A stretch of DNA of 64,000 nucleotides from Coraliomargarita sp. (GCA_965216325.1 OZ244160.1:1408001-1472000); one strand, 5' to 3'. Positions 46,165 through 59,780 are shown, counted from the first letter of the stretch. Made by a program: numbers and translations. Notes: a model not told the origin generated them from the sequence alone.

Positions 46165-46749
46165 ATGCACAATAAACTGCGGACTATCCTAACTGCCTCA
46201 TTGGCCTATACATTAACCTCCAATGCTGCAATCGATCTAACTATTAGCTATAACTCGGAGCTAAACTCAACCACATTGAGCTACTCAGGAAGCTGGGAAA
46301 CGATCGGACTCACCGGAACTGACCCCACAGGCTATCAAGCTGGAGACGGCTGGAGCCTCACCCATCCGAGCCGCATCTACGCGATGGGCAAAACGCCACA
46401 TATCTGGTATACTCACGGAGATGCCTCACTAACCTCCACACCCTTTATTGAGTTGGATCTTGGAAATGAAACAGTGGAAGGCGATGCATGGGGCTTTAGT
46501 GAAGCAACACTCTTCGCTCCAGTAGGCTATGTTGCAGGAGATTCAATTAATGGCTCAGTGACGTTCCAAAACACGACACTTTCCGATATCGGACTAGACC
46601 CTGTAGAGATTGCCAATGGTGGAGTGATTTCAGGCCTAGGTGCTGGCAACGATATCACATGGAGTGTCATTCCAGAACCATCCCAATATACAGTCGTGCT
46701 ATCCAGTATATTGGTCGCTTGCATCGCATTCACCCGACGCCGTCGCTAG
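46165..46749 (+). CDS. PEP-CTERM sorting-domain exported protein
   Basis: Signal peptide; C-terminal VIPEPS + hydrophobic helix + RRRR. Confidence 0.85.
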   Translation: MHNKLRTILTASLAYTLTSNAAIDLTISYNSELNSTTLSYSGSWETIGLTGTDPTGYQAGDGWSLTHPSRIYAMGKTPHIWYTHGDASLTSTPFIELDLGNETVEGDAWGFSEATLFAPVGYVAGDSINGSVTFQNTTLSDIGLDPVEIANGGVISGLGAGNDITWSVIPEPSQYTVVLSSILVACIAFTRRRR

Positions 46750-46876: not shown

Positions 46877-47668
46877 ATGATCTTCGATCCCGAAAAACTC
46901 CTCTTACTCGCAGGCCCCTGCTCGCTCGAAAGCCTCGACACCTGCCGACCAGTCGCGGATGCGCTCAAAGCCCTCGAAGCCAAGCACCCGGAGCTCAACA
47001 TTCTGTTCAAGGGTTCTTTTGATAAAGCCAACCGCACATCGATCAACAGCGACCGTGGCACTGGCATCGATAAAGGATTGGAGATTTTCAAAACCATCCA
47101 ATCTGAATACGGCTTCAAAACGATCACCGACATCCACCTACCGGAGCAGTGCGCACAGGTCGGAGCCGTAGTCGATGCCATGCAAATTCCGGCCTTCCTT
47201 TGCCGTCAAACCGATCTGCTGGTCGCAGCGGCGGCAACCGATTGCGCAATCAACGTGAAGAAGGGGCAGTTCCTCTCTCCCTACGAAATGAAGTTCGTCA
47301 CGAACAAGCTTGAGGAAGCGGGCGCAAGGGAAATCTGGCAAACCGACCGTGGCACCACGTTTGGCTATCAGAACCTCGTCGTCGACATGCGTAGCTTCAG
47401 CATTATGGCTGAGAATGGCCACCCGACGGTCATCGATGCCACCCACAGCGTGCAGCTCCCGGGCGCAGCTGGTGGAGTCAGTGGCGGTCAACGCGAATAC
47501 GTGCCTGCCCTCGCCCGCGCGGCCCTGGCGGCGGGTGCCAATGGCGTGTTCCTCGAAACGCACCCAAATCCAGAGCAAGCCATCTCCGATGCAGCCAGCC
47601 AAGTGCCACTCGAGGAGCTCCCTGAGCTGGTCGAAAGCCTGGTTCGCGTGTGGAACGCGGTTAACTAG
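46877..47668 (+). CDS. kdsA: KDO-8-phosphate synthase
   Basis: [43 protein letters not shown]. Confidence 0.95.
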
Positions 47669-48342: not shown

Positions 48343-48744
48343 TTATTGCTGGGCCTGATAGATCACGTCCTCAGCAACGAGGACATTGTCCGCACGAACC
48401 ACGCGCTTATTGCCATCGGCGAGAACTAAGACTTTCGGCTTCCAGCTTTTTGCTTCTTCAGCTTGAAACTGCGCGAAAGACATGATGACCAGCAGGTCGC
48501 CAATCGCACCGAGATGCGCAGCCGCACCGTTCAGCGAAATCGTGTGTGAGCCTTTGGGAGCTTCAATCGCGTAGGTCTCGAAGCGCTCGCCATTGGCGAT
48601 ATTGGCGACGAGAATCTTCTCATACGGCATGAGACCGATCTGTTCCATCAATGCAGAGTCAATCGCCAGACTGCCCTCATAATGAAGAGCGCGGTCCGTT
48701 ACCTCTGCGCGGAGCAGCTTGGATTTAAGGAGCGTAACTTGCAT
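48343..48744 (-). CDS. panD: Aspartate 1-decarboxylase
   Basis: LKSKL, YEGS cleavage site, [15 protein letters not shown]. Confidence 0.93.
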
Positions 48745-48860
48745 AGATCTAATAGGTTCGGATTTAGACAAATTGTCAAAAGGGCGCACAAGTTGGCGAA
48801 TCCCTCTGAGTTTGGCAATTCTGGAATTATTGCCAGATTCTAGCAATTCGAATGCCTAAA

Positions 48861-49988
48861 TCAGGTTTCTTCGCGACGCACGACGACGGAAAACACGCAA
48901 GTTGTGCCCTGTCCCTGCTCACTTTGAATGCTGAGTTCGCCCCCAAGACGATCCGCAATGGTGCGGCAAAGCGAGAGCCCAACCCCGAGCCCTCCATGCG
49001 TGCGCTTGAGCGAGGAATCCTCTTGTGAGAAAGCATCGTAAATACGACCACTCTGAAGATAATCCGGATCAATCCCCGGGCCAGTGTCCTTAATTTCGAA
49101 GCGCAATTTTACATTCGAGTCTGCTAGAGACTCAAAGGAAACCGACAGCGTAACCTGCCCCTCTGCCGTGAATTTGACCGCATTATGCAGCAGTTTACGC
49201 AAAGCGATTCGAATCTCGTCCTCCGGACCTGAGACAAATTGAGGCACATCCGATGGAATATCCGTAACAAGGTCGACCAAGTCCTTGGGTTTCTCGTCAT
49301 TCACCAACTTGATCATCATCGTCGCCGGGTTAAACGAGCCGGACGAGACGTCCTCCTCACCCATGGAAAGCCGGGCATAAGTGAAAATGTCCTGCACATG
49401 CCCGAAATAATCCTTACTACAATCACGAATAGTCCCGAGGAATTCCTTCTGTTCCTCGTCCAGTTCGGTATCCTCCAGCAAATCGAGAAAACCCAAGATG
49501 CCATTCATAGGCGTATTCAACTCGTGGCTGACAATCTCCAGAAAATTAGTCTTCGCCGCATTCACATCGTTGCGGATCACGGTGTCCTGCCGCGTATTAA
49601 ACAGAAAGCTTTCATAGCAACGTCCGACGACGGTCTGAATGTGATCGAGGTCAAAAGGCTTCTTTAAATACTCGGATGCCCCCAGCGAAATCGCCTGCCG
49701 AGCCGTCTCCAGTGTCTCATACGCAGTCAACACAATGACCTCGGTATACTTATCGAGCTTCTTTACCTCACGGAGCACATCAATGCCACTCATGCCACGC
49801 ATCCGAATGTCGGTAATGACCAAGTCGAAGGGTTGCTCGGCCGAGAACTCCACCGCCTCTTCTCCCGATGTGGCAATGGTCACATCGTAGTCATCGCAAA
49901 AGATCATATTCAGCGATTGGCGTGGGCCTTCCTCATCATCGACGACGAGCATTCGTTTGGTTGCTAGAGCAGAGTGGTCTTCGGTCAT
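48861..49988 (-). CDS. Hybrid receiver-histidine kinase (REC-HisKA-HATPase), cytoplasmic
   Basis: VVDDE..TDIRM..LTAY..KPF receiver; SHELNTP, NAVKFT, DTGPGI, GLGVGL; start 49988 or 50024. Confidence 0.9.
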
Positions 49989-50085
49989 GAGCGGTTCGGT
50001 TGGTAGAAAGTTAATATCGAGCAATCACTGCTACAATGATTCGGTAGTACACGGTTCAGCGTCAATCAATCCATCTTTCGTTGCG

Positions 50086-51531
50086 CTACAAACTGGGTGA
50101 CGGATCCATTTGTAGGTTCAATTTTAACCTGATCGCACGGACCACTGCGGTCACATCAAAGGGCTTCTGAATTACAAGGTCACCTTCGGCCACACGACCA
50201 TCCGCACACAGCATGCGCTTATTCCGAGCACTCGAATATGCCAACTGGACCGCGCCCTGCAGGACCGCCTGTAGCCCGCGTATACGCTCAAGAACTTCCG
50301 GCTCAAAGCGGTCCAAATCGAACAGCAAACAATCCACGGCCCCAGACGCGATCAAATCAGCAGCTTCATCCGCGTGCGCACAATACATCACATGCGCAGC
50401 ATCTTCGAGCAATACGCTTAAACTATCTGCAATCGGTTCATATGCATCCAGCACCAACAAATTCGGACGTAGCGCACGAACGGCCTGCTCCAGCCCAGAG
50501 CGAGCCATCTCAACAACATGCGCCCAACTCTGAGCGACCTCATCATGCTCTGGCTGAAAAACTGTCAGCTTTAAATCCTCCAATTGAACATCCCTCAACT
50601 CAGGCCCAAGCTTTCGGCGCACCTGTGATAACGTCTGCCCCGGAAAAATACAGGCACACACATAGGCATCCAACGGCTGAATCAAATCTGCACTTAACTC
50701 CACAGACAACTGACTTTGCTTCAAGGACGCATATAATACGCCCGCCTGTTGCTTCGACTCAAGGAGCGCGACACTGACTGGCGAATTCTGATATTTACCA
50801 CGATAATACTCACGCTCTAAAGCCCCAAGCAGTTTAGACCGACGCTTACTCAAATCGTAAATAACGTATGCCGAGACCATCCCCGTACCGGGGTCGAAAC
50901 ATCTGCGAGCCGCAAATAGAAAGCGCCCTTCGACTTCAAAGTGCGCGTCAGCACCATTGCCAACGCAGTCTTGAAGCGCAAGAAGCACATCACATCGCTC
51001 GGGATGCTGCGGTTCACTCACTAGGCCAAGTTGCTTCCAAGCCAAGGCATTACCTGACATCAGATCGCCTGCAGCATCAAAACACAAAATACCCAACGGC
51101 AACTGATCGATCAGAAACTGCAGTACTTTAATCTGACGCTCCGTATGGCGCTGCTCCTTCGCCCGCCCATATAAGGCCGCGAGAAAATCTGCCATCGAGC
51201 CCATCAAACGCAAATCTTCCGCACCAAACGGACGCTGATCTTTACGACCCGAAACACGAAGAAAGCCGCCTTCTGCAGCACCTGACAAGGGAAGCACAAC
51301 GCGCCCCTGCTCAAAAACACGAGCCGATGACTCGCCATCGGCATTCAGCTCATCCTCGATCAGGAAGCTCCCCCTCAAATATGGGTCAGCCTCCACCGCA
51401 TTGCTAAGCGAATGACAGAAGCCTTGAAAGTCCGAGAATGAGCCAATTGCCCGCGCAAAACGCCGATACGACTCGGACAGTGACGCAGCCGTCATTTCAA
51501 TCGGCGCTGTATGTTCTTCAGACGGTTTCAT
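50086..51531 (-). CDS. Multi-domain signalling protein (GAF/PAS-like, degenerate central domain, C-terminal receiver)
   Basis: FGAEDLRLM GAF-end helix; IDQLPLGILCFD PAS start; C-terminal LLVLD..CLLFDLD..QKPFD. Confidence 0.6.
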   Translation of the reverse strand: MKPSEEHTAPIEMTAASLSESYRRFARAIGSFSDFQGFCHSLSNAVEADPYLRGSFLIEDELNADGESSARVFEQGRVVLPLSGAAEGGFLRVSGRKDQRPFGAEDLRLMGSMADFLAALYGRAKEQRHTERQIKVLQFLIDQLPLGILCFDAAGDLMSGNALAWKQLGLVSEPQHPERCDVLLALQDCVGNGADAHFEVEGRFLFAARRCFDPGTGMVSAYVIYDLSKRRSKLLGALEREYYRGKYQNSPVSVALLESKQQAGVLYASLKQSQLSVELSADLIQPLDAYVCACIFPGQTLSQVRRKLGPELRDVQLEDLKLTVFQPEHDEVAQSWAHVVEMARSGLEQAVRALRPNLLVLDAYEPIADSLSVLLEDAAHVMYCAHADEAADLIASGAVDCLLFDLDRFEPEVLERIRGLQAVLQGAVQLAYSSARNKRMLCADGRVAEGDLVIQKPFDVTAVVRAIRLKLNLQMDPSPSL

Positions 51532-51549
51532 AGAATCCAGTACTAGGCC

Positions 51550-53691
51550 CTAGTCACAAGGCAGAGAGATTCGAAAACATGTGCCATGATTCAGCTCAGA
51601 ACTGACCGTAATATGTCCTTGGTGACGCTCAATGATTTTACTCACAATTGCCAGCCCCAGGCCGGTCCCGGCAGAGCCATGCCGAGCTCCGGTATCACGC
51701 GAGGTAGCAAACGGGTCGAAGATACGGTCCTGAAGGTCTTTGGAGATTCCCGGCCCATTGTCTGATATCTCCATCTCTAGCCAACGCTTCCGCTCATAGC
51801 GCCCTCCGCCACGCAAACTTGCCCGAAATGTGATCAAGCCCAATTCAGGTCGTTCTCCCCATTCACTAATCGCATTGATGCCATTCTCAATGATGTTGCG
51901 AACCACCTGTATCAGCTGCTCCAAATCTGCGTGTAATCTCGGCATATCTTTATCAAGCACGACCTCTAGCTGAACATTCTCAAGTGCTAAGCGCCCACTC
52001 ACCCCCGATTGAGCTTCAAAAATGACATCACGGATCGCAACACTCTCCATCGGACGCTTAGCATCCTGCGCAAAGGCAGAAACCCCCTCTACAATACCAA
52101 AGATTCGCTTTACATCACGTTGCACCGTAGCACTGAATTCTTCCGTCAACTTAAGTTCGGTCGGATTCTTCTTCAACAAACTCGTCATCGTTCGAACCGA
52201 AACCAATGGATTGCGTAACTCATGCGACAAGCCCGCAGCCATCGTCCCCAGAGAAACCAATTTCTCGACCTGATTGGACATCCGCTCCATCTCCCGAGAC
52301 TTAATGGTTAAGGCCAACTCTGCACAAAGATTTTCGAGCAATATTAGATCAACATCTGAGAAGGCCCCCGAACGGCGACTCGCACCGAGGACTAAGAAGC
52401 CATACAAGCTACCCTGAACTCCGATCGGCAAAAAGACATCCGAACTACGAAAGGGCAGATCCGAGTTAAACAGAGCCTGAAAGTTACTCCGAAAAGAACT
52501 CGATCGTTCCATCTTTTCCTCAAGGAAAATCGCATGACGTTGCCCCCGCAGGAAATCAACCAGCACTTCCAAGTTCGCACTTTCAATCGTTTTGACCGGC
52601 GTCCGCTCCCCTTGTATCGCCCGACATTCAAAACTAGAAGCCAAATCCCTGCGCACATAAACGGATGCAAAATCTAAACTCATTGCCCCGAAAATTCGCT
52701 CAACGACTACATCATAGACATCTCCTTCCGCTAGGCTTGAAACCACATCATCTGAAAGTTGACGCAATTCTTGGCGATACCCAAGCCTTCCCGAAATCAA
52801 TCGAGTCTGAATCAAATCATCAACATAACGAACAACAGGAGGGCATACAAACATCAACAGGGCACTAAGCAGTGTAAGCGCAGGCCACCAAAACAAAAAT
52901 GAACTTGGTGAAAAATCGACATAAGCAGCCTTGAGGACCAGAACCAATCCGACGGCGCAGAGCGCACCAAAAATAATTGAGAACAAAATCAGCCCCAAAA
53001 TCCGAAAAGCCATCTCACTGAAATCAAGGATGCGATATTTCAACATCGTATACCCTAAACCCATGAGATAGACAATCACCAGACCATGGCCAAAGGGCGG
53101 CACTTGAATCTCAAACCAAAGCAAAAAATTAGTCGAACCTCCTGCAAATCCGACTGCTGTCCCAATAAGTATGTAACGAAGTTTGTTCTTTGCCTCGATC
53201 TCCGACTTGCAGTATGTGTGAAACAGTAAGCCCACCCCCAAAACAGACATTAAGACATAGCCGCCAATGTAAACAGGAAACAAAACGCCGGGGACAGGCC
53301 AAAATTCAAAGCCCAAACGAGGTTCGACGCCTAAGACAATAAACTTCCCAAAATTTAAGCAGAATAAAATGGCTGCTAGCAGATATCCAGCATAGGCGAA
53401 CGCACGAAACTTCAGATTTTCGGTCAGATTAATTACAAAATGAAAATATGCGTACGGCACGAAGATGGATGCCCCTACCAAATACTTCACCCAGTATACT
53501 GCAGCAGCCTCCGTTTCAGCCAATTGCCATAACATATGAGCAAGAGCCCAGCAAAATATCGTAAAATTGAAGAAACAAAAAGTCTGATTCTTTCCATCGT
53601 CCAACTTAAGACCCTTAAGTAAAACGGATGCTATAAAATACAGCGTCAGGGCAGAAATAAAAAATGAACTAACAATCAAATATGCGATCAT
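51550..53691 (-). CDS. Membrane sensor histidine kinase (N-terminal 7TM-type region, GAF, HisKA, HATPase)
   Basis: Many TM helices; [42 protein letters not shown]. Confidence 0.9.
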
Positions 53692-55373
53692 CTTACAACC
53701 GATATTAAATTTGCCTGATCGCCAAAAGACCTAAAGAACTGCGCCCCCGAAAAACCCGCCAACCTAACCAGGTCAACCAGCTCTTCCTCACTATAAAACA
53801 CATAATGCCCCTCATCTTCTTTCAGCTGAATTGCGCCCGCAGCACTTAACAAACTCCTAGCAGAGTCTAGCGCATCTTCGGAGTCTGCTTCAGTAACAAA
53901 GCCCTTGTATATCAATGATAAATCACAGTACGGCTTCATACTTGAGACAATCATCTTACCCCCGGGCTTGAGTACACGATGAAGTTCAGACAATAAGACA
54001 CTGGGCTGCTTTAGGTAGGAGATTAATAGGCTGCAGCAGACTCGATCAATTGAAGCATCTGCGAAAGGCAAGCGCACTTGACTGGCTCCTCGACCATCTA
54101 ACTCATCTAAATCGAATCGATAATACAACATATCCAATCCCTCTCGGCCATGAATTTCATGAGTTAATGAGGAATGGCGTCGATGCGCCTCCGATAGGCC
54201 TTTGCCCGTAAGATCCAGACCAAAATATGTGGTCGGCAATTCCAGTGGATCTCGATTCTGCAAAGCTAAATCTCGTAAACACCAAGCGCCAAACATCCCA
54301 TTACCGCAACCACAATCCAAATAGACGAGTCCCGGTTCGGTAACTCCTAGGCATGAACCGATCAACGAAAGATAATCCCTGTAAGCACCGACAGCTTCAA
54401 GCATCTTGTATTTATCTAAATATTTTGCCCAAAAGTCCCCTTCACTCTCTCGAAGAGGGGCCATCGCCCTAAGGCGTTCGCGCTCGACCTTATTCTGACG
54501 AAAGACCTCCCGCCGGTCTGGGCTTAAGATTTCATACAGTTCATCCTGCCCTGCAAAACGCCCATGCCGACTCACATACACTGCCTGCATAATGGCTTCT
54601 ATCGCTAACTTCGGGTTCTCCATCAACTCGTGCATCGCGCCATCGACCAGCCGCAACTTTACACGTTCCGACTTAGCCGCCAAAGCATCTACTTCAGCCA
54701 ATTCAACCCATGCGTCTCTCTTCGCCGGAAAAAGAAATATGTCGCACTTAGCCTTACAGACATCCTCTAGAGTTCCATCTAGATCCTGCATGTCCGAATC
54801 AACAGCGGTCTTAAGAAACTGGTCTATATTGACTTCATGGCCCAAAATATCCCCAACACCTTGAATCGCTCCATCCATGTAGGCATTCACGATATCCTTC
54901 TGGCAAATCGTAGTGATTGTTGAGCGAAAGTTGACAATTGGAACCAAACATACCAAGCGCTCAATTCGATGATCGAGACTCGCAGCGCGAATCGCACAAC
55001 GCCCCGACATACTATTAGCCTGCAGCGTTACTGAGTGCACATGATGTTGAATCTCAAGAAAATCAATTGCAGCGAGTATATCATCCACTCCATTCGGAAG
55101 CGTATAATTCTGAATTTCGCCCTCGCTTTCTCCAATGTGATTTGTCTGGTCAAAGCGCAACACACGGAACCCATTTACAGCAAAGTAATAAGCGAGTTGT
55201 AAGTTATTCTTTTTCGACTGCCCATACTTCGGGGCCATCACAACAAAAGGAGCACTCGGCATCTTACTAGGCGTGTCGATGTACCCAACAATCTTCTTAC
55301 CATTGCGAGAAGGGAAGACAACCACTTCGCTCCGGATACTTATCTCGCTGGCATCCTGAACCTCAATCGACAT
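53688..55373 (-). CDS. LuxD-like acyl-ACP thioesterase/acyltransferase fused to a class I SAM methyltransferase
   Basis: N-half [46 protein letters not shown] parallel LuxD motifs; C-half [25 protein letters not shown]. Confidence 0.8.
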
Positions 55374-55570
55374 GACTAGTATTGATATTCACTGCGCGCA
55401 TCAGAGCCAGCTATGTATTCAATTTCAAATACAAAATACGCTAGAGACCGCATAAAATGGCTAAAATTCACCTAATTTGAAAAGAATTGAAGTTGCACTA
55501 ACGCTCAATAAGTCTCAGAAATATCAAAACCGCGCTCAGCGGCAAATCACAACACTGCGCTACCTTTTGA

Positions 55571-57574
55571 GTGACCCACCTATTGTTCATCACGTCTGGA
55601 GATGACATCCCGGAACATCTACGGGAGGCATTCACAGCGCCGGAGATACGCACGGTCACGCGAACAACCGTCAGTGAAGTTCAACAAGCACTGCAACATG
55701 GAGCCTTCGACATCGCCCTGCTCCATGGCGATTTTCAGAGTGATCACTTGCGACAAAGTATCGAAGACCTACGCGTACACTCGGCAAACGTCTTCATCAT
55801 TGCAATCGCAACAACTTACGACGAGTCAGACGAAGCAGTCGCGTTCGATGCAGGCGCAAATCTGTATTTTGCCGAGCCTATTCCAACGCAGACGATTACG
55901 CGCCTAGTGCAGAGTCAGGCAGCCGGCACACAGGAAGCCCCAAGCCAGACAATTCGCCATAGCCACCAGGAATCGGCAGACGACCACTCGACCGCTTCCA
56001 CCCTAAAAACCATTCGCGATTTCTCCAATATCCTGAGCTACAGCTTGGATTACAAGGCCTTCACGCAGCAGTTTATCCTCAAGCTGCGTGACCACATAAG
56101 TTTTAGTCGAATTGGAATTTTTCTCGAAGCCTCAGCCAAACAATCTCTGGTTAAGAGCAAACCGACCAAGCCGCTGGAATGCGTCGCATCCCTTGGACTA
56201 CCGTCCGACCTCGTCGACTGCTTTCAGCTCAGTCGATCAGTTGGCATCGGGCGCACGCTCTGCGAACACCCCCGGATCTTAAGTAAGCAGCAGCATACCC
56301 AGAACCCGTTTGATCATGATGCGTCCATTCGCAAGGAATTTGACATCCTTGGCTGCCACACCGCAGTGCCGATCACAGACCGCGAGCAATTAATCGGACT
56401 CGCGGTGCTCAATGGACCCGTCACCGGCCGTCACTACTCGGAGGCAGAACTGCAACTCCTCTTCATTCTGATGGAAGAGCTCGGACTTGCGATACGTAAT
56501 AGCCGCTTACACACCGAGCTCGCGAGCCACGGACAACTCATTGACAGTGTACTGAGCTCCATGTCCAGCGGTGCAATTGTCATCGGCGAAGACCTGAGTA
56601 TTCTCTACACGAATCGGTCAGCCAATGAATTTCTGAAGCTACCCAGGCTCGACAACACGCCACCGCTGTGGGCAGATTTACCCACCAAGCTTGCGGGCCC
56701 GCTGCATCGTGCAGTCGAAAAAGGTGAGCTCCCTGAGCCCTTCACGCTGAATGCAGCCGACGGCACGATCTACCGGGCCTCAGTCATTCCATTCACTCAG
56801 GAAGATGAATTAGCCCTCCTTCCACGGCCAGTCATGGTGATCATTGAAGACTTCACTAACATTGAAGCCAGTAAAGCATCCGAAGTCGCCAACACACGCA
56901 ATGAAGTCGTCAGCCTCATCGCCAAACGCTTTGCCCATGAGATCCGCAACTCGCTGGTGCCACTGTCAACGCATGCACAATTGATCGACAAGAAAATCGA
57001 GCAGCCCGCGTTTCAAGCATCACTCAAGTCCGCTCTGCTCAAGGAAACCAACCGCATTAAGCGCTTCAGCGAACAAATGCTCTATCTGGCGCAAGACTCG
57101 ATCTCAGCCGACAACGGACTCGACCTGGTTCAGTTAATCCACGCTGCGTTCAGTGCAGCAAAGAAACATTTAGACGCTCGCGAAGTCGAACTGGTCACCA
57201 CTGGATCGCCAGAAGATTGCCTGGCCAAGGGAAATACTGAAGCACTCAGTTTTGTCTTCCAGGAGCTCTTCCTCAACGCGATCCAATCACAGGGAGGCCC
57301 AGGCACCATCGAAATCGAAATCACAACTGGCGGAGCCGATACCCTGCGCATTCGAATCAAAGACAGCGGACCGGGCTTCTCCCAAGAAGTCATGCGTCAG
57401 GCCACTGAACCTTTCTACACAACACGCAACACCGGAGTGGGATTGGGACTTTCCATTGCACAGAAAATCATCCAAGAGCACAACGGCCAGCTACGCCTGA
57501 ATGCACGCACTCCCGGAGCAGAATGGGATATTGAAATCGAACTACAATCACTACTCACCACGACCAATGGATAA
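55571..57574 (+). CDS. Cytoplasmic histidine kinase (pseudo-receiver, GAF, PAS-like, HisKA, HATPase)
   Basis: AFDAGANLYFAEP receiver-like end; YSEAELQLL; FAHEIRNSL; DSGPG; PFYTT..GVGLGL. Confidence 0.85.
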   Translation: MTHLLFITSGDDIPEHLREAFTAPEIRTVTRTTVSEVQQALQHGAFDIALLHGDFQSDHLRQSIEDLRVHSANVFIIAIATTYDESDEAVAFDAGANLYFAEPIPTQTITRLVQSQAAGTQEAPSQTIRHSHQESADDHSTASTLKTIRDFSNILSYSLDYKAFTQQFILKLRDHISFSRIGIFLEASAKQSLVKSKPTKPLECVASLGLPSDLVDCFQLSRSVGIGRTLCEHPRILSKQQHTQNPFDHDASIRKEFDILGCHTAVPITDREQLIGLAVLNGPVTGRHYSEAELQLLFILMEELGLAIRNSRLHTELASHGQLIDSVLSSMSSGAIVIGEDLSILYTNRSANEFLKLPRLDNTPPLWADLPTKLAGPLHRAVEKGELPEPFTLNAADGTIYRASVIPFTQEDELALLPRPVMVIIEDFTNIEASKASEVANTRNEVVSLIAKRFAHEIRNSLVPLSTHAQLIDKKIEQPAFQASLKSALLKETNRIKRFSEQMLYLAQDSISADNGLDLVQLIHAAFSAAKKHLDAREVELVTTGSPEDCLAKGNTEALSFVFQELFLNAIQSQGGPGTIEIEITTGGADTLRIRIKDSGPGFSQEVMRQATEPFYTTRNTGVGLGLSIAQKIIQEHNGQLRLNARTPGAEWDIEIELQSLLTTTNG

Positions 57575-58757
57575 GCGAATCCACACACTCTTCACCCTCG
57601 GCAGCAGCCTTCTCCTCACCGGATCCATCGCAACGGCAGCTGCGACGCGAGTCGCCTACATCGATCCATTTGCCACTGCCCGTGGGAATGCATTTACCGC
57701 AACGGCCGACAACCCATCTGCGGTCTTCTACAATGCAGCAGGTCTGACGCAATTAGAAGGCAGTCAGGTGCAAGCCAACGTGTTCGCGATCTCTCTCGCC
57801 TACGAACAGGACAGTAGCCTTGGACTCGGCAGTCAGGATATGGACGATGACTTCCAACCTATCCCCAGCTTCTTCGCTGCTCATCGCTTTGAGAATAGCG
57901 ATATCGCGCTGGGCTTTGGCGCCTACGCACCGTTCGCCCTGGGCTCCGATTGGGGCAGTGATGCTGACTTTGCAGTCATTGACCCGCGGGTTCCCTACGA
58001 AGGTGAACTCGCCTACGTCAAATACCACCTCGCTCTCGCATGGCAGATTACTGAAACGCTCTCTGTTGCAATCGGCACGAGCTACGACGATGTCGATCTG
58101 GAGGTGAAAGCCAACGCACTGAAATTTGATAGCGATGGCGACGACATCGGCTTTTCCGCATCCGTTCTCTGGCAACCGAATGAACGGCATTCCTTCGGCC
58201 TCAACTACCAAGCCCGCACGAACATCAGGCATGAAGGTAAAGCCGACCTCCTCGTCGCACCAGACACCTTTCTACGCTTCGACGCGGAAGCCGATTTGGA
58301 CTACCCCGAGTCAATCGTTTTCGGATACTCCTACCGCCCTAATGAGCATTGGAATATCGAGTTCAACCTCGACTGGACGAACTGGGACATCATCGACACA
58401 TTCGACCTAAAGGGTCCTCCCGGTGATCTTGGCTATGTTTTAAACTGGGAATCTGCCTTTATCTGGGAACTCGGAGCCACTCGCTATTTTGACAACGGCT
58501 GGCACATCAGCGCAGGCTACACCTTCGTGGAAGATGCCGTGCCGGACGAAGGCTTCTTGCCTATAGTGCCAGACAATGACCGCCATTTCTTCTCGATAGG
58601 CGTCGGGCAAACGATCGGGCAATTCTACTGGCAAGCAACTTACCAGTATACCTACTCAGACGAACGCTCGGTCAACAACCCGAACCTACCCTCCATCGCA
58701 GGAGATTATGACTTAGACAGTCAAGCAGTTGCGTTCTCGCTCGGCTATCGCTGGTAA
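57567..58757 (+). CDS. FadL/OmpP1/TodX family outer-membrane long-chain fatty-acid/hydrophobic compound channel
   Basis: Signal peptide, ARGNAFTATADNPSAVFYNAAGLTQL hatch motif, YAPFAL, beta-barrel ending GYRW; ATG 57567 overlaps the kinase stop. Confidence 0.85.
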   Translation: MDKRIHTLFTLGSSLLLTGSIATAAATRVAYIDPFATARGNAFTATADNPSAVFYNAAGLTQLEGSQVQANVFAISLAYEQDSSLGLGSQDMDDDFQPIPSFFAAHRFENSDIALGFGAYAPFALGSDWGSDADFAVIDPRVPYEGELAYVKYHLALAWQITETLSVAIGTSYDDVDLEVKANALKFDSDGDDIGFSASVLWQPNERHSFGLNYQARTNIRHEGKADLLVAPDTFLRFDAEADLDYPESIVFGYSYRPNEHWNIEFNLDWTNWDIIDTFDLKGPPGDLGYVLNWESAFIWELGATRYFDNGWHISAGYTFVEDAVPDEGFLPIVPDNDRHFFSIGVGQTIGQFYWQATYQYTYSDERSVNNPNLPSIAGDYDLDSQAVAFSLGYRW

Positions 58758-58759
58758 GC

Positions 58760-59494
58760 TCACTCCCACAGACCCTGCTCAATCATCTGTTGAGTCGCCT
58801 GCTCGGCCCAGCCTCGATTCGCGGCAGGACTGGCTGGGCTCGGGTGTAAGACCCGACCGACCTGGACATCCATCCCCTTAAGCGCTTCGTTGGCACGCGT
58901 CTGCGCGAAGGCTCCCACACCAATCAACCATTCGGGCTGCAGGGCTTCCACCAACTCACGAAGATGCTGATCACACACCTCATAGAGTGCTGCGATCTCG
59001 GCTGCCGGTAACTTATCGGGCGTGCGATTTTTACCGCCCTCCTCCATGAAGACCAAAGGGCAGTAGTTCGCGACGAAATGATTGGCAAAAAATGCATCCG
59101 CGGAGCCAAAGCGCTCTTTGAACAGCCCCCAGAGTCGACGACCACTGACTTCGCTACGTTGACAGTCAAAGCCGTCAATCGGGCGCTTCGGGTGCTCATT
59201 GGCAGGCTTCGCAACCGGCTCATGAATCCCCACCCAATCACGGATCAATGAAATCTCGCCAAACGGAACCCCACATTGCGCCATCCCAAACGGCCCCGGA
59301 TTCATCCCAAGGAACACGACCTGCTTTTTCGACGCTGCATAGCGCTCCAAATACACTTGGTGCGGCTGCCATGCGTAATCAAGTGGATTATACACCACAG
59401 CGGTTGGAGCCGAAAACGCCAAGGCGTCGACGGCAGCCGACAGTTTCCGCGCAGCGGCAATGCTAGCTTTGGCAATGGAACTACTTGGCATCAT
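58760..59494 (-). CDS. SMUG1-type (family 3) uracil-DNA glycosylase
   Basis: YNPLDYA, GMNPGPFGMAQCGVPFG, EVSGRRLW, NYCPL, HPSPASP. Confidence 0.88.
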   Translation of the reverse strand: MMPSSSIAKASIAAARKLSAAVDALAFSAPTAVVYNPLDYAWQPHQVYLERYAASKKQVVFLGMNPGPFGMAQCGVPFGEISLIRDWVGIHEPVAKPANEHPKRPIDGFDCQRSEVSGRRLWGLFKERFGSADAFFANHFVANYCPLVFMEEGGKNRTPDKLPAAEIAALYEVCDQHLRELVEALQPEWLIGVGAFAQTRANEALKGMDVQVGRVLHPSPASPAANRGWAEQATQQMIEQGLWE

Positions 59495-59780
59495 TATCCT
59501 GCCCCTGCACATCACTGTGCCCAAGATCACGCTCTGGTGCGATCTGATCTCGAATCAATTGCTTCAACTCCTTCATCTCCGGAAAGCCTCCCTTCGACTT
59601 GCGATCCCAGATTTCGTGCCCATCCAGCGTCACTAAAAAGCGACCACTCGTTTCCGACGGGCGCAAGGTCACGCCACCCAGTTCTTTCTCAAAAGTCGTC
59701 AGTAATTCCTGTGCAGACCAGCCGGCCCGAAGTAACCAGCGACAACCGGTGCAGTATTCAATTTCAACAGTTGGCTTCAT
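59481..59780 (-). CDS. SelT/SelW/SelH (Rdx) family protein
   Basis: IEYCTGCRWLLRA, QELLTTF, GGFP, LGH. Confidence 0.88.
   Translation of the reverse strand: MKPTVEIEYCTGCRWLLRAGWSAQELLTTFEKELGGVTLRPSETSGRFLVTLDGHEIWDRKSKGGFPEMKELKQLIRDQIAPERDLGHSDVQGQDNDAK

Follow-up and report, generated by a model that had tools for sequence, protein, structure and literature searches.

A thioesterase-methyltransferase fusion and its 7TM-GAF kinase as the core of a candidate lipid-derived signalling locus in Opitutales

The window analysed here is a 64,000-nucleotide (nt) stretch (G000:C1:1408001-1472000) of the complete 3.06-Mb genome of a Coraliomargarita sp., which the names of its homologues affiliate with the Verrucomicrobiota, and within them with Puniceicoccaceae/Coraliomargaritaceae-like Opitutales. 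Between two housekeeping genes it carries a locus whose core is a fusion of a LuxD-like thioesterase with an S-adenosylmethionine (SAM)-dependent methyltransferase (P0002), followed by a seven-transmembrane (7TM) GAF histidine kinase. An earlier note on this DNA had described six genes at this place and had read them as a system that makes, transports, and senses a methylated fatty-acyl signal. Our comparisons leave the scales level on whether the locus is a lipid-derived signal system with a cognate synthase-receptor core, working like PhcBSRQ of Ralstonia. An open reading frame (ORF) listing together with Pfam and NCBIfam profile matches recovered all six genes, in place and with the domains that the note had assigned to them, as well as its two housekeeping flanks:

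48343-48846, minus strand: panD, flanking gene (Pfam)
48861-50024, minus strand: REC-kinase hybrid (REC, HisKA, and HATPase domains)
50086-51531, minus strand: P0001, 481 amino acids (aa), with GAF-like, PAS, GGDEF-like, and REC parts recognized from an alignment and from a fold search with an AlphaFold2 (AF2) model
51550-53691, minus strand: 7TM-GAF histidine kinase, 713 aa (HisKA_7TM, GAF, HisKA, and HATPase domains)
53688-55373, minus strand: fusion P0002, 561 aa (Acyl_transf_2/LuxD and class I SAM methyltransferase; Pfam, NCBIfam)
55374-55570: divergent intergenic region of 197 nt, separating both operons
55571-57574, plus strand: GAF-PAS kinase, 667 aa (weak REC, GAF, HisKA, and HATPase domains)
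57501-58757, plus strand: FadL/TodX-family gene (Toluene_X), whose ORF opens at 57501 and whose probable start is at 57567
58760-59530: UDG-superfamily gene, flanking gene (Pfam)

The two gene overlaps that the note had pointed out are likewise present. In the sequence, read directly, the TGA of the fusion overlaps the ATG of the 7TM kinase as ATGA, and the probable start of the FadL gene at 57567 overlaps the TAA of the GAF-PAS kinase (57572-57574) by 8 nt.

The neighbourhood of the fusion, on which the earlier reading leaned, proved to be conserved. The 7TM kinase directly follows the fusion in all 13 genome loci (nine examined and four in a second set; fusion identity 36-70%), and P0001 comes next in all 12 of them that are long enough. 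A scan of metagenomes yielded 80 loci, 75 with distinct fusion DNA, after duplicates had been dropped and the longest locus of each group kept. Of the distinct loci with 1300 nt or more of sequence downstream, all 59 of 59 have a 7TM kinase beginning no more than 400 nt past the fusion, and P0001 comes next in 38 of the 41 with at least 3900 nt on that side. On the upstream side, 43 of 48 loci with at least 2300 nt show the GAF-PAS kinase in divergent orientation, and 29 of 39 with at least 3700 nt have FadL behind that kinase. This arrangement is far beyond chance; the genes beyond the set vary by lineage. Within the order, the fusion is present in 7 of 151 genomes, P0001 in the same seven plus one weak REC-only match, the GAF-PAS kinase in ten, namely the seven fusion genomes and three with the alternative enzyme set described below, and a FadL orthologue in 11. 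In a sample of the phylum, 14 of 401 genomes have the fusion, 13 of them (G000 included) from the same order, and its presence varies within genera; homologues occur in the cultured Thalassobacterium maritimum and Coraliomargarita akajimensis. In two of the genomes that have the fusion (G075 and G136) a second site holds the GAF-PAS kinase, the REC-kinase, and a ketoacyl synthase, with FadL there too in G075. The separateness of this second site indicates that the set is built from two modules, one comprising the fusion, the 7TM kinase, and P0001, and the other the GAF-PAS kinase, FadL, and the REC-kinase. The ketoacyl synthase of these sites (L027:10922-12166, minus strand, in G075 and L028:10809-12047, minus strand, in G136) is located upstream of the GAF-PAS kinase gene, with 53% identity to its counterpart in the ICMT-type operon of G050, treated below; it may provide a dedicated condensation step for a signal precursor in some lineages. 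One further genome, G120, has a RES toxin and Xre-type antitoxin pair beside the set (L012:3237-4222, minus strand).

The fusion has the features of an intact bifunctional enzyme. Its first half scores 97.9 bits with Acyl_transf_2 (PF02273) over residues 47-253, where the cut-off is 20.3; residues 337-542 form a class I methyltransferase, with matches to Methyltransf_11, _23, and _25 (Pfam). The best sequence match is LuxD (1THT; E value 1e-20), and S121, D220, and H248 align with what we take to be the LuxD triad, Ser114, Asp211, and His241 in 1THT numbering. This triad is invariant in 37 homologues spanning 42-83% identity, as are the SAM motif D353-x-G-C-G-x-G359 and, in a conserved helical linker between the two halves, Q293, N294, E297, R298, F314, W315, and Y318. 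A more varied set of 25 members likewise has S121 and H248 throughout, and 90% or more of it retains D220. The AF2 model of the fusion (predicted local distance difference test score, pLDDT, 86; predicted template modelling score, pTM, 0.82) again finds LuxD (1tht) as its best PDB match, at a template modelling (TM) score of 0.83; this full-model search was dominated by alpha/beta hydrolases and is uninformative on the nearest methyltransferases. The LuxD equivalog NF052253 gives 91 bits against a cut-off of 420, and by this profile measure the fusion is not a LuxD orthologue. On the conservation of its catalytic residues we regard the enzyme as very probably active; that its product is a plain fatty-acid methyl ester is a more tentative proposal. 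A 457-aa metagenome singleton, P0232, keeps the methyltransferase but has a shortened thioesterase with the nucleophilic Ser replaced, and is thus a degenerate form of the cassette.

The proposed receptor matches HisKA_7TM (PF16927) with 32 bits against a gathering threshold of 28.6. In a search of the whole genome, where it scores 35.8 bits, it is the sole HisKA_7TM protein, and its orthologues score 47-69 bits. The H-box histidine, His490, is present, and W48, F85, G184, W192, and P199 of the membrane part are invariant in 32 sequences. A complex prediction for the fusion with residues 290-713 of the kinase returned a score of 0.00, which speaks neither for nor against an interaction. Enzyme and 7TM kinase are in all likelihood a functional pair; that the enzyme's product or a derivative of it is the ligand of the kinase is somewhat favoured, and that such a signal acts between cells is conceivable at a lower level of confidence.

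The pairing is drawn more sharply by the way in which its two members vary together. In ten family-level loci, the GAF-PAS kinase (51-57%), FadL (59-66%), and the REC-kinase (58-70%) are all of similar identity to those of the window, and the fusion and the 7TM kinase fall into two classes, the one with 52-70% and 45-52% identity to the window's, respectively, and the other with 40-41% and 31-32%. The contrast is clearest between two loci, L056 and L131, in which the GAF-PAS kinase and the REC-kinase are each 84% identical, FadL is 77%, and P0001 61%, whereas the fusion is just 40% and the 7TM kinase just 32% identical. We refer to the form shared by L056 and the window as allele A and to that of L131 and G270 as allele B. 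For trees, we used the best tblastn high-scoring segment pairs with at least 75% coverage from the window and 22 hand-picked loci in which most of the genes are present, applying a careful IQ-TREE run to the fusion, a quick IQ-TREE run to the 7TM kinase, and FastTree to the GAF-PAS kinase and FadL. In the fusion tree and in the 7TM-kinase tree alike, these loci part into two deep, fully supported (100%) clades, that of the window lying nearer to loci of another family. The GAF-PAS kinase and FadL trees unite the ten loci in one clade (support 100), within which the two classes are interleaved. The enzyme and the 7TM kinase thus appear to have been exchanged, or to have diverged, jointly and apart from the remaining locus, and joint replacement is the pattern expected for a cognate signal-receptor pair.

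A second line of evidence comes from genomes in which the fusion itself is substituted. Three genomes (G016, G050, and G121) have the GAF-PAS kinase and FadL with no fusion, and exactly these three have strong orthologues of an ICMT/PEMT-family membrane methyltransferase (E value 1e-45 or better); six other genomes have weak ICMT-family matches (1e-16 to 1e-20) and lack the GAF-PAS kinase, and the G000 genome has no ICMT homologue. The operons concerned lie at:

L025:4407-13010 (G121): ICMT-type operon
L026:5896-16615 (G016): ICMT-type operon
L053 and L055 (G050): ICMT-type operon

The G121 operon is a co-directional and overlapping series of genes for an ICMT-type methyltransferase, a beta-ketoacyl synthase, a HisKA_7TM kinase paralogue, the GAF-PAS kinase, FadL, and the REC-kinase. 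This paralogue is 22-23% identical to the 7TM kinase of the window over its full length. In G050, the trio of methyltransferase, ketosynthase, and 7TM kinase is present in two copies. Two unrelated methyltransferases are thus each combined with an acyl-chain enzyme and a 7TM kinase of their own in front of the same downstream set, which suggests that a methylated acyl compound is the common currency of both.

The remaining members of the set look like components of a signalling relay. P0001 has no Pfam or NCBIfam match, and one of its orthologues has a Response_reg match. Aligned with one another, nine orthologues show a motif like the end of a GAF domain, then a PAS-like stretch, then a region like the start of a GGDEF domain in which the GGDEF motif itself is missing, and lastly a receiver with an invariant K456-P-F motif. 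At the acceptor position of the receiver, near residues 400-406, five of the nine orthologues have Asp and four have Glu, the P0001 of the window having Asp, and part of the family may accordingly be a phosphorylation-independent pseudo-receiver. The AF2 model, with a pLDDT of 71.5 overall and of low quality ahead of residue 107, resembles the PAS-GGDEF-EAL structure 5xgb and numerous receiver domains, and P0001 as a whole is a signalling protein outside the described families. The REC-kinase hybrid, which probably starts at Met13 of its ORF, has a receiver of canonical appearance (the DD pair, the acceptor Asp in VITDIRM, Thr, and Lys) and no DNA-binding domain; its orthologue stands after P0001 in loci of the family labelled f1 and behind FadL in other families. 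In translation, the receiver of the GAF-PAS kinase carries His where the phosphate-accepting residue should stand and has Glu in place of the conserved Lys, which marks the N-terminus of this kinase as a pseudo-receiver; the protein is soluble, with no hydrophobic segment found. The FadL gene shows a signal-peptide-like stretch after its probable start and matches Toluene_X (PF03349) with 133.3 bits against 29.7 over profile positions 4-414 of 421. In agreement with the earlier note, Pfam annotation detected no DNA-binding regulator in the locus, and it detected none in the conserved part of seven related loci.

These features can be joined in a mechanism in which the LuxD-like Ser-Asp-His domain of the cytoplasmic fusion, judging from its family and intact catalytic residues, would take an acyl chain from acyl-acyl carrier protein (acyl-ACP), and the methyltransferase domain would then add a methyl group to what is released, a fatty-acid methyl ester being the simplest outcome. 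The enzyme might draw on a dedicated ketosynthase in some lineages, so that a 3-oxo or otherwise modified chain is possible. The hydrophobic product would then partition into membranes, there to be read by the 7TM domain of the translationally coupled kinase. The 7TM kinase, P0001, the REC-kinase, and the pseudoREC-GAF-PAS kinase would constitute a branched phosphorelay of three kinases and two functional receivers. Such a relay has no DNA-binding member, and its output would therefore lie elsewhere or be post-translational, as in the Ralstonia Phc system. The FadL-family channel would pass the hydrophobic molecule across the outer membrane.

The cassette extends well beyond the Verrucomicrobiota. 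Queried with residues 285-561, the methyltransferase part, a database of 1.84 billion representatives returned 88 proteins at an E value of 1e-30 or better, and many of these are longer than the fusion of the window. In P0136, P0148, P0155, P0197, P0212, and others, the cassette stands behind SRPBCC/Polyketide_cyc, PilZ, PilZ plus SRPBCC, or REC-PAS-PilZ domains (Pfam), an elaboration that the earlier note had not foreseen. The taxa of the long forms, as far as a few names tell, are Omnitrophota, Binatia, Nitrospirota/Nitrospira, and Opitutus. In six distant metagenome loci a HisKA_7TM-GAF kinase follows the enzyme in every case, with start and stop overlapping or nearly abutting; the enzyme is plain in L118 and fused to SRPBCC or PilZ in the other five, and small receiver proteins come next in L107, L130, and L135. 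In L133 (4857-11884), a 7TM-GAF-GGDEF protein with an OmpR-type DNA-binding domain lies directly upstream of a PilZ-bearing enzyme, which is then followed by the 7TM-GAF kinase, a layout that may permit feedback of cyclic di-GMP (c-di-GMP) onto the enzyme. In two further proteins, P0317 and P0319, a PilZ part like that of the fused forms accompanies a KAS III (FabH-like) domain instead of the cassette, a possible sign that c-di-GMP governs another acyl enzyme as well. The portion consulted of a preprint census of PilZ proteins contains no mention of acyl or hydrolase fusions.

Among known systems, the closest parallel is Phc, here compared by published description rather than by sequence. As set out in the consulted sections of PMC8578825, phcB-phcS-phcR-phcQ encode a SAM methyltransferase whose product is a fatty-acid methyl ester signal, a membrane sensor kinase, a soluble protein with REC and kinase domains, and a REC protein, none of them DNA-binding, and PhcR and PhcQ act on a regulator encoded elsewhere. 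On that description, gene order and domain content agree with the present locus, the output lies elsewhere there and would probably do so here, and the REC-kinase hybrid has the architecture of PhcR. The consulted sections of PMC11960443 further report that the type of Phc signal splits strains independently of phylotype, and the two cassette alleles found here resemble this independence of phylogeny. The differences are that the methyltransferase is here fused to a LuxD-like thioesterase, that the kinase is a 713-aa HisKA_7TM-GAF protein, that the REC protein has GAF/PAS/GGDEF-like parts, that a second soluble kinase and FadL belong to the set, and that the organisms are of another phylum. 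PhcB is characterized, in the part of the literature consulted, as having a "SAM-dependent methyltransferase domain". A tblastn search of a plasmid collection gave no PhcB-like match, returning only generic methyltransferases and the LuxD of a lux plasmid, and its Burkholderia match is a 246-aa methyltransferase in an unannotated stretch; P0232 and P0216 had no matches in the same collection. P0232 was also considered as a PhcB candidate and rejected, being a metagenome singleton whose relatives are ordinary members of the cassette family.

The other comparisons are more partial. LuxD itself (1THT, PF02273) resembles the enzyme half in sequence, fold, and catalytic positions; apart from the low equivalog score, the locus differs in the fused methyltransferase and in having no luxC/E/A/B genes within it by Pfam. 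In the CqsA/CqsS system of Vibrio and the LqsA/LqsS system of Legionella, the synthase gene likewise adjoins that of a polytopic membrane kinase thought to bind a lipid-like signal in the membrane. These synthases, however, are pyridoxal phosphate-dependent acyl-CoA transferases, and their partner receptors are six-helix proteins that lack a GAF domain. Diffusible signal factor (DSF) signalling by RpfF and RpfC also uses a signal derived from fatty-acyl-ACP, and the control of its synthase by a sensor receiver recalls the REC-PAS-PilZ-fused cassettes; RpfF, by contrast, has a crotonase fold, and the pathway does without methylation. The channel gene belongs, as FadL and TodX do, to the Toluene_X family and is linked to the putative sensing of a hydrophobic molecule. 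It is only distant from Escherichia coli FadL, its score with the FadL equivalog being 34 bits against a cut-off of 585. In Sinorhizobium, FadL homologues reportedly aid the perception of long-chain acyl-homoserine lactones.

The main rival to a signal system is envelope lipid homeostasis, in which the 7TM kinase would sense the state of the membrane and the fusion would be the regulated output, removing or capping acyl chains, its product being either incidental or a lipid of the cell's structure or surface. The PilZ and REC-PAS-PilZ fusions, which show control of the enzyme by a second messenger or phosphorylation, agree with this proposal, as do the neighbours of the enzyme in L118, which include a lipid A acyltransferase and a glycosyltransferase like monogalactosyldiacylglycerol (MGDG) synthase; where no DNA-binding regulator is encoded, control could also be post-translational. 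A homeostatic function would not, however, be expected to be as patchily distributed as the fusion is in the order and the phylum, down to variation within genera, or to have its enzyme and sensor replaced as a cassette between close relatives, nor would it account for the additional soluble kinase and the dedicated uptake channel of FadL type that accompany the fusion. We therefore hold it to be unlikely, if the most serious of the alternatives. Still less probable is that the locus senses, takes up, and detoxifies hydrophobic compounds from outside the cell, for instance free fatty acids or esters of algae, which FadL would import, the kinases sense, and the hydrolase-methyltransferase convert by ester hydrolysis or methyl capping. 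FadL/TodX-family channels adjoin sensor kinases in hydrocarbon-degradation loci, the FadL/kinase module does occur apart from the enzyme in G075 and G136, and the alpha/beta-hydrolase fold also matches esterases; yet no annotated locus has catabolic genes for beta-oxidation or oxygenases, the best match in both sequence and fold is the acyl-ACP thioesterase LuxD and not an esterase, and the slot in the alternative set is filled by a biosynthetic ketoacyl synthase.

Two further explanations would tie single genes of the locus to described pathways. The 7TM-GAF kinase has the same architecture as PrsK, the regulator of PEP-CTERM/exosortase exopolysaccharide genes, and matches the PrsK model TIGR02916 at an E value of 3.7e-26; the hydrolase domain has weak matches to TIGR03100 and TIGR03101, which could make it the counterpart of an exosortase-associated hydrolase, and the genome does contain exosortase genes. 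The earlier note had itself named PrsK as one reading that would undo its own, and the kinase turned out not to be PrsK: with TIGR02916 it reaches 91.9 bits where the cut-off is 300, over model positions 286-679 (the GAF-kinase part) only, and no protein of the genome attains that cut-off. Nor is there an adjacent sigma-54 regulator of the PrsR type. The exosortase matches, at 0.82, 0.88, and 1.72 Mb, are hundreds of kilobases from the locus at 1.457-1.467 Mb, and it is the fusion to which the kinase is tied without exception in the metagenome loci. This explanation is close to refuted. That the fusion joins BioH- and BioC-like enzymes of pimelate (biotin) synthesis is hardly credible: JGI homologues bear the name "pimeloyl-ACP methyl ester carboxylesterase" and there is a weak match to BioC (TIGR02072), but its 22 bits fall far below the cut-off of 185, the hydrolase is of the LuxD type, and the patchily distributed gene keeps company with kinases instead of bio genes.

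Several points weigh against a signal system as well. The fusions to PilZ, REC-PAS, and SRPBCC domains present the enzyme as a regulated output, and a non-signal effector role fits them equally well. The methyltransferase domain matches generic class I families only, in Pfam and NCBIfam, and only generic methyltransferase clusters in the ESM Atlas, so that carboxyl O-methylation is a putative activity; the ketosynthase and SRPBCC partners in some lineages suggest that the substrate may instead be a beta-keto or polyketide-like acyl chain. FadL is missing from 10 of the 39 eligible metagenome loci, and the genomes counted are relatives whose counts do not amount to independent events. The trees of the 7TM kinase, the GAF-PAS kinase, and FadL come from quick methods, and the two classes were defined from an identity table of the same genes, which builds the clade split partly into the result; the independent evidence is the interleaving of the classes in the GAF-PAS kinase and FadL trees. 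The functional claims as a whole draw on comparative genomics and are to be read as predictions. Set against these points, the earlier picture of a signal that is made, transported, and sensed gains from the conserved pairing of synthase and 7TM kinase, their joint replacement, the alternative enzyme set, and the parallel with Phc, and it is the FadL link that has come out looser.

The composition and surroundings of the locus bear on its history. The note had called the synthase and 7TM part visibly AT-richer, and the difference is genuine yet modest: the fraction of guanine and cytosine (GC) is 0.471 in the fusion, 0.466 in the 7TM kinase, 0.426 in its 7TM part, and 0.391 in the divergent intergenic region, against 0.538 for the whole window. 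A recent horizontal island, which the GC dip might bring to mind, is unsupported. The dip is present in some relatives only, and the place beside panD is kept in five family-level loci (L003, L016, L040, L042, and the window), an adjacency within the family which argues that the locus is not a recent island. The panD gene begins 14 nt past the stop of the REC-kinase on the same strand, and co-transcription of the two is possible; beta-alanine leads to the phosphopantetheine arm of ACP, though the adjacency is perhaps mere synteny. Elsewhere in the window, a 194-aa ORF without a Pfam match lies at 46165-46749 on the plus strand, between the region before 46 kb and kdsA (46877-47668). Scans for promoters and terminators gave site counts not above those in shuffled sequence.

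A full-text literature search found no paper on such a signalling system in Verrucomicrobiota, and none on this cassette or its pairing with the kinase; the consulted part of PMC6944256 reports no ligand for HisKA_7TM. More broadly, and with more doubt than for the locus itself, the findings may delineate a widespread and undescribed class of lipid signalling, in which a methylated acyl signal, produced by a two-domain thioesterase-methyltransferase or by an interchangeable set of ICMT-type methyltransferase and ketoacyl synthase, is read by a cognate 7TM-GAF kinase, with pherotype-like cassettes exchanged together and with c-di-GMP gating through fused PilZ domains in Nitrospirota, Omnitrophota, and Binatia. 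The enzyme, a cytoplasmic protein of 561 aa, can be expressed alone, which makes for a concrete and cheap test. If its product is a signal, the fusion would represent a new synthase family and would furnish a ligand class for the HisKA_7TM sensor domain; the recurrence of the enzyme-kinase pair in several phyla would be explained, and the allele pairs would offer natural material for studying how the specificity of signal and receptor evolves. The PilZ-fused forms would tie c-di-GMP to the production of a lipid signal. Should the broader reading hold true, the Verrucomicrobiota would have their first cell-to-cell signalling system.

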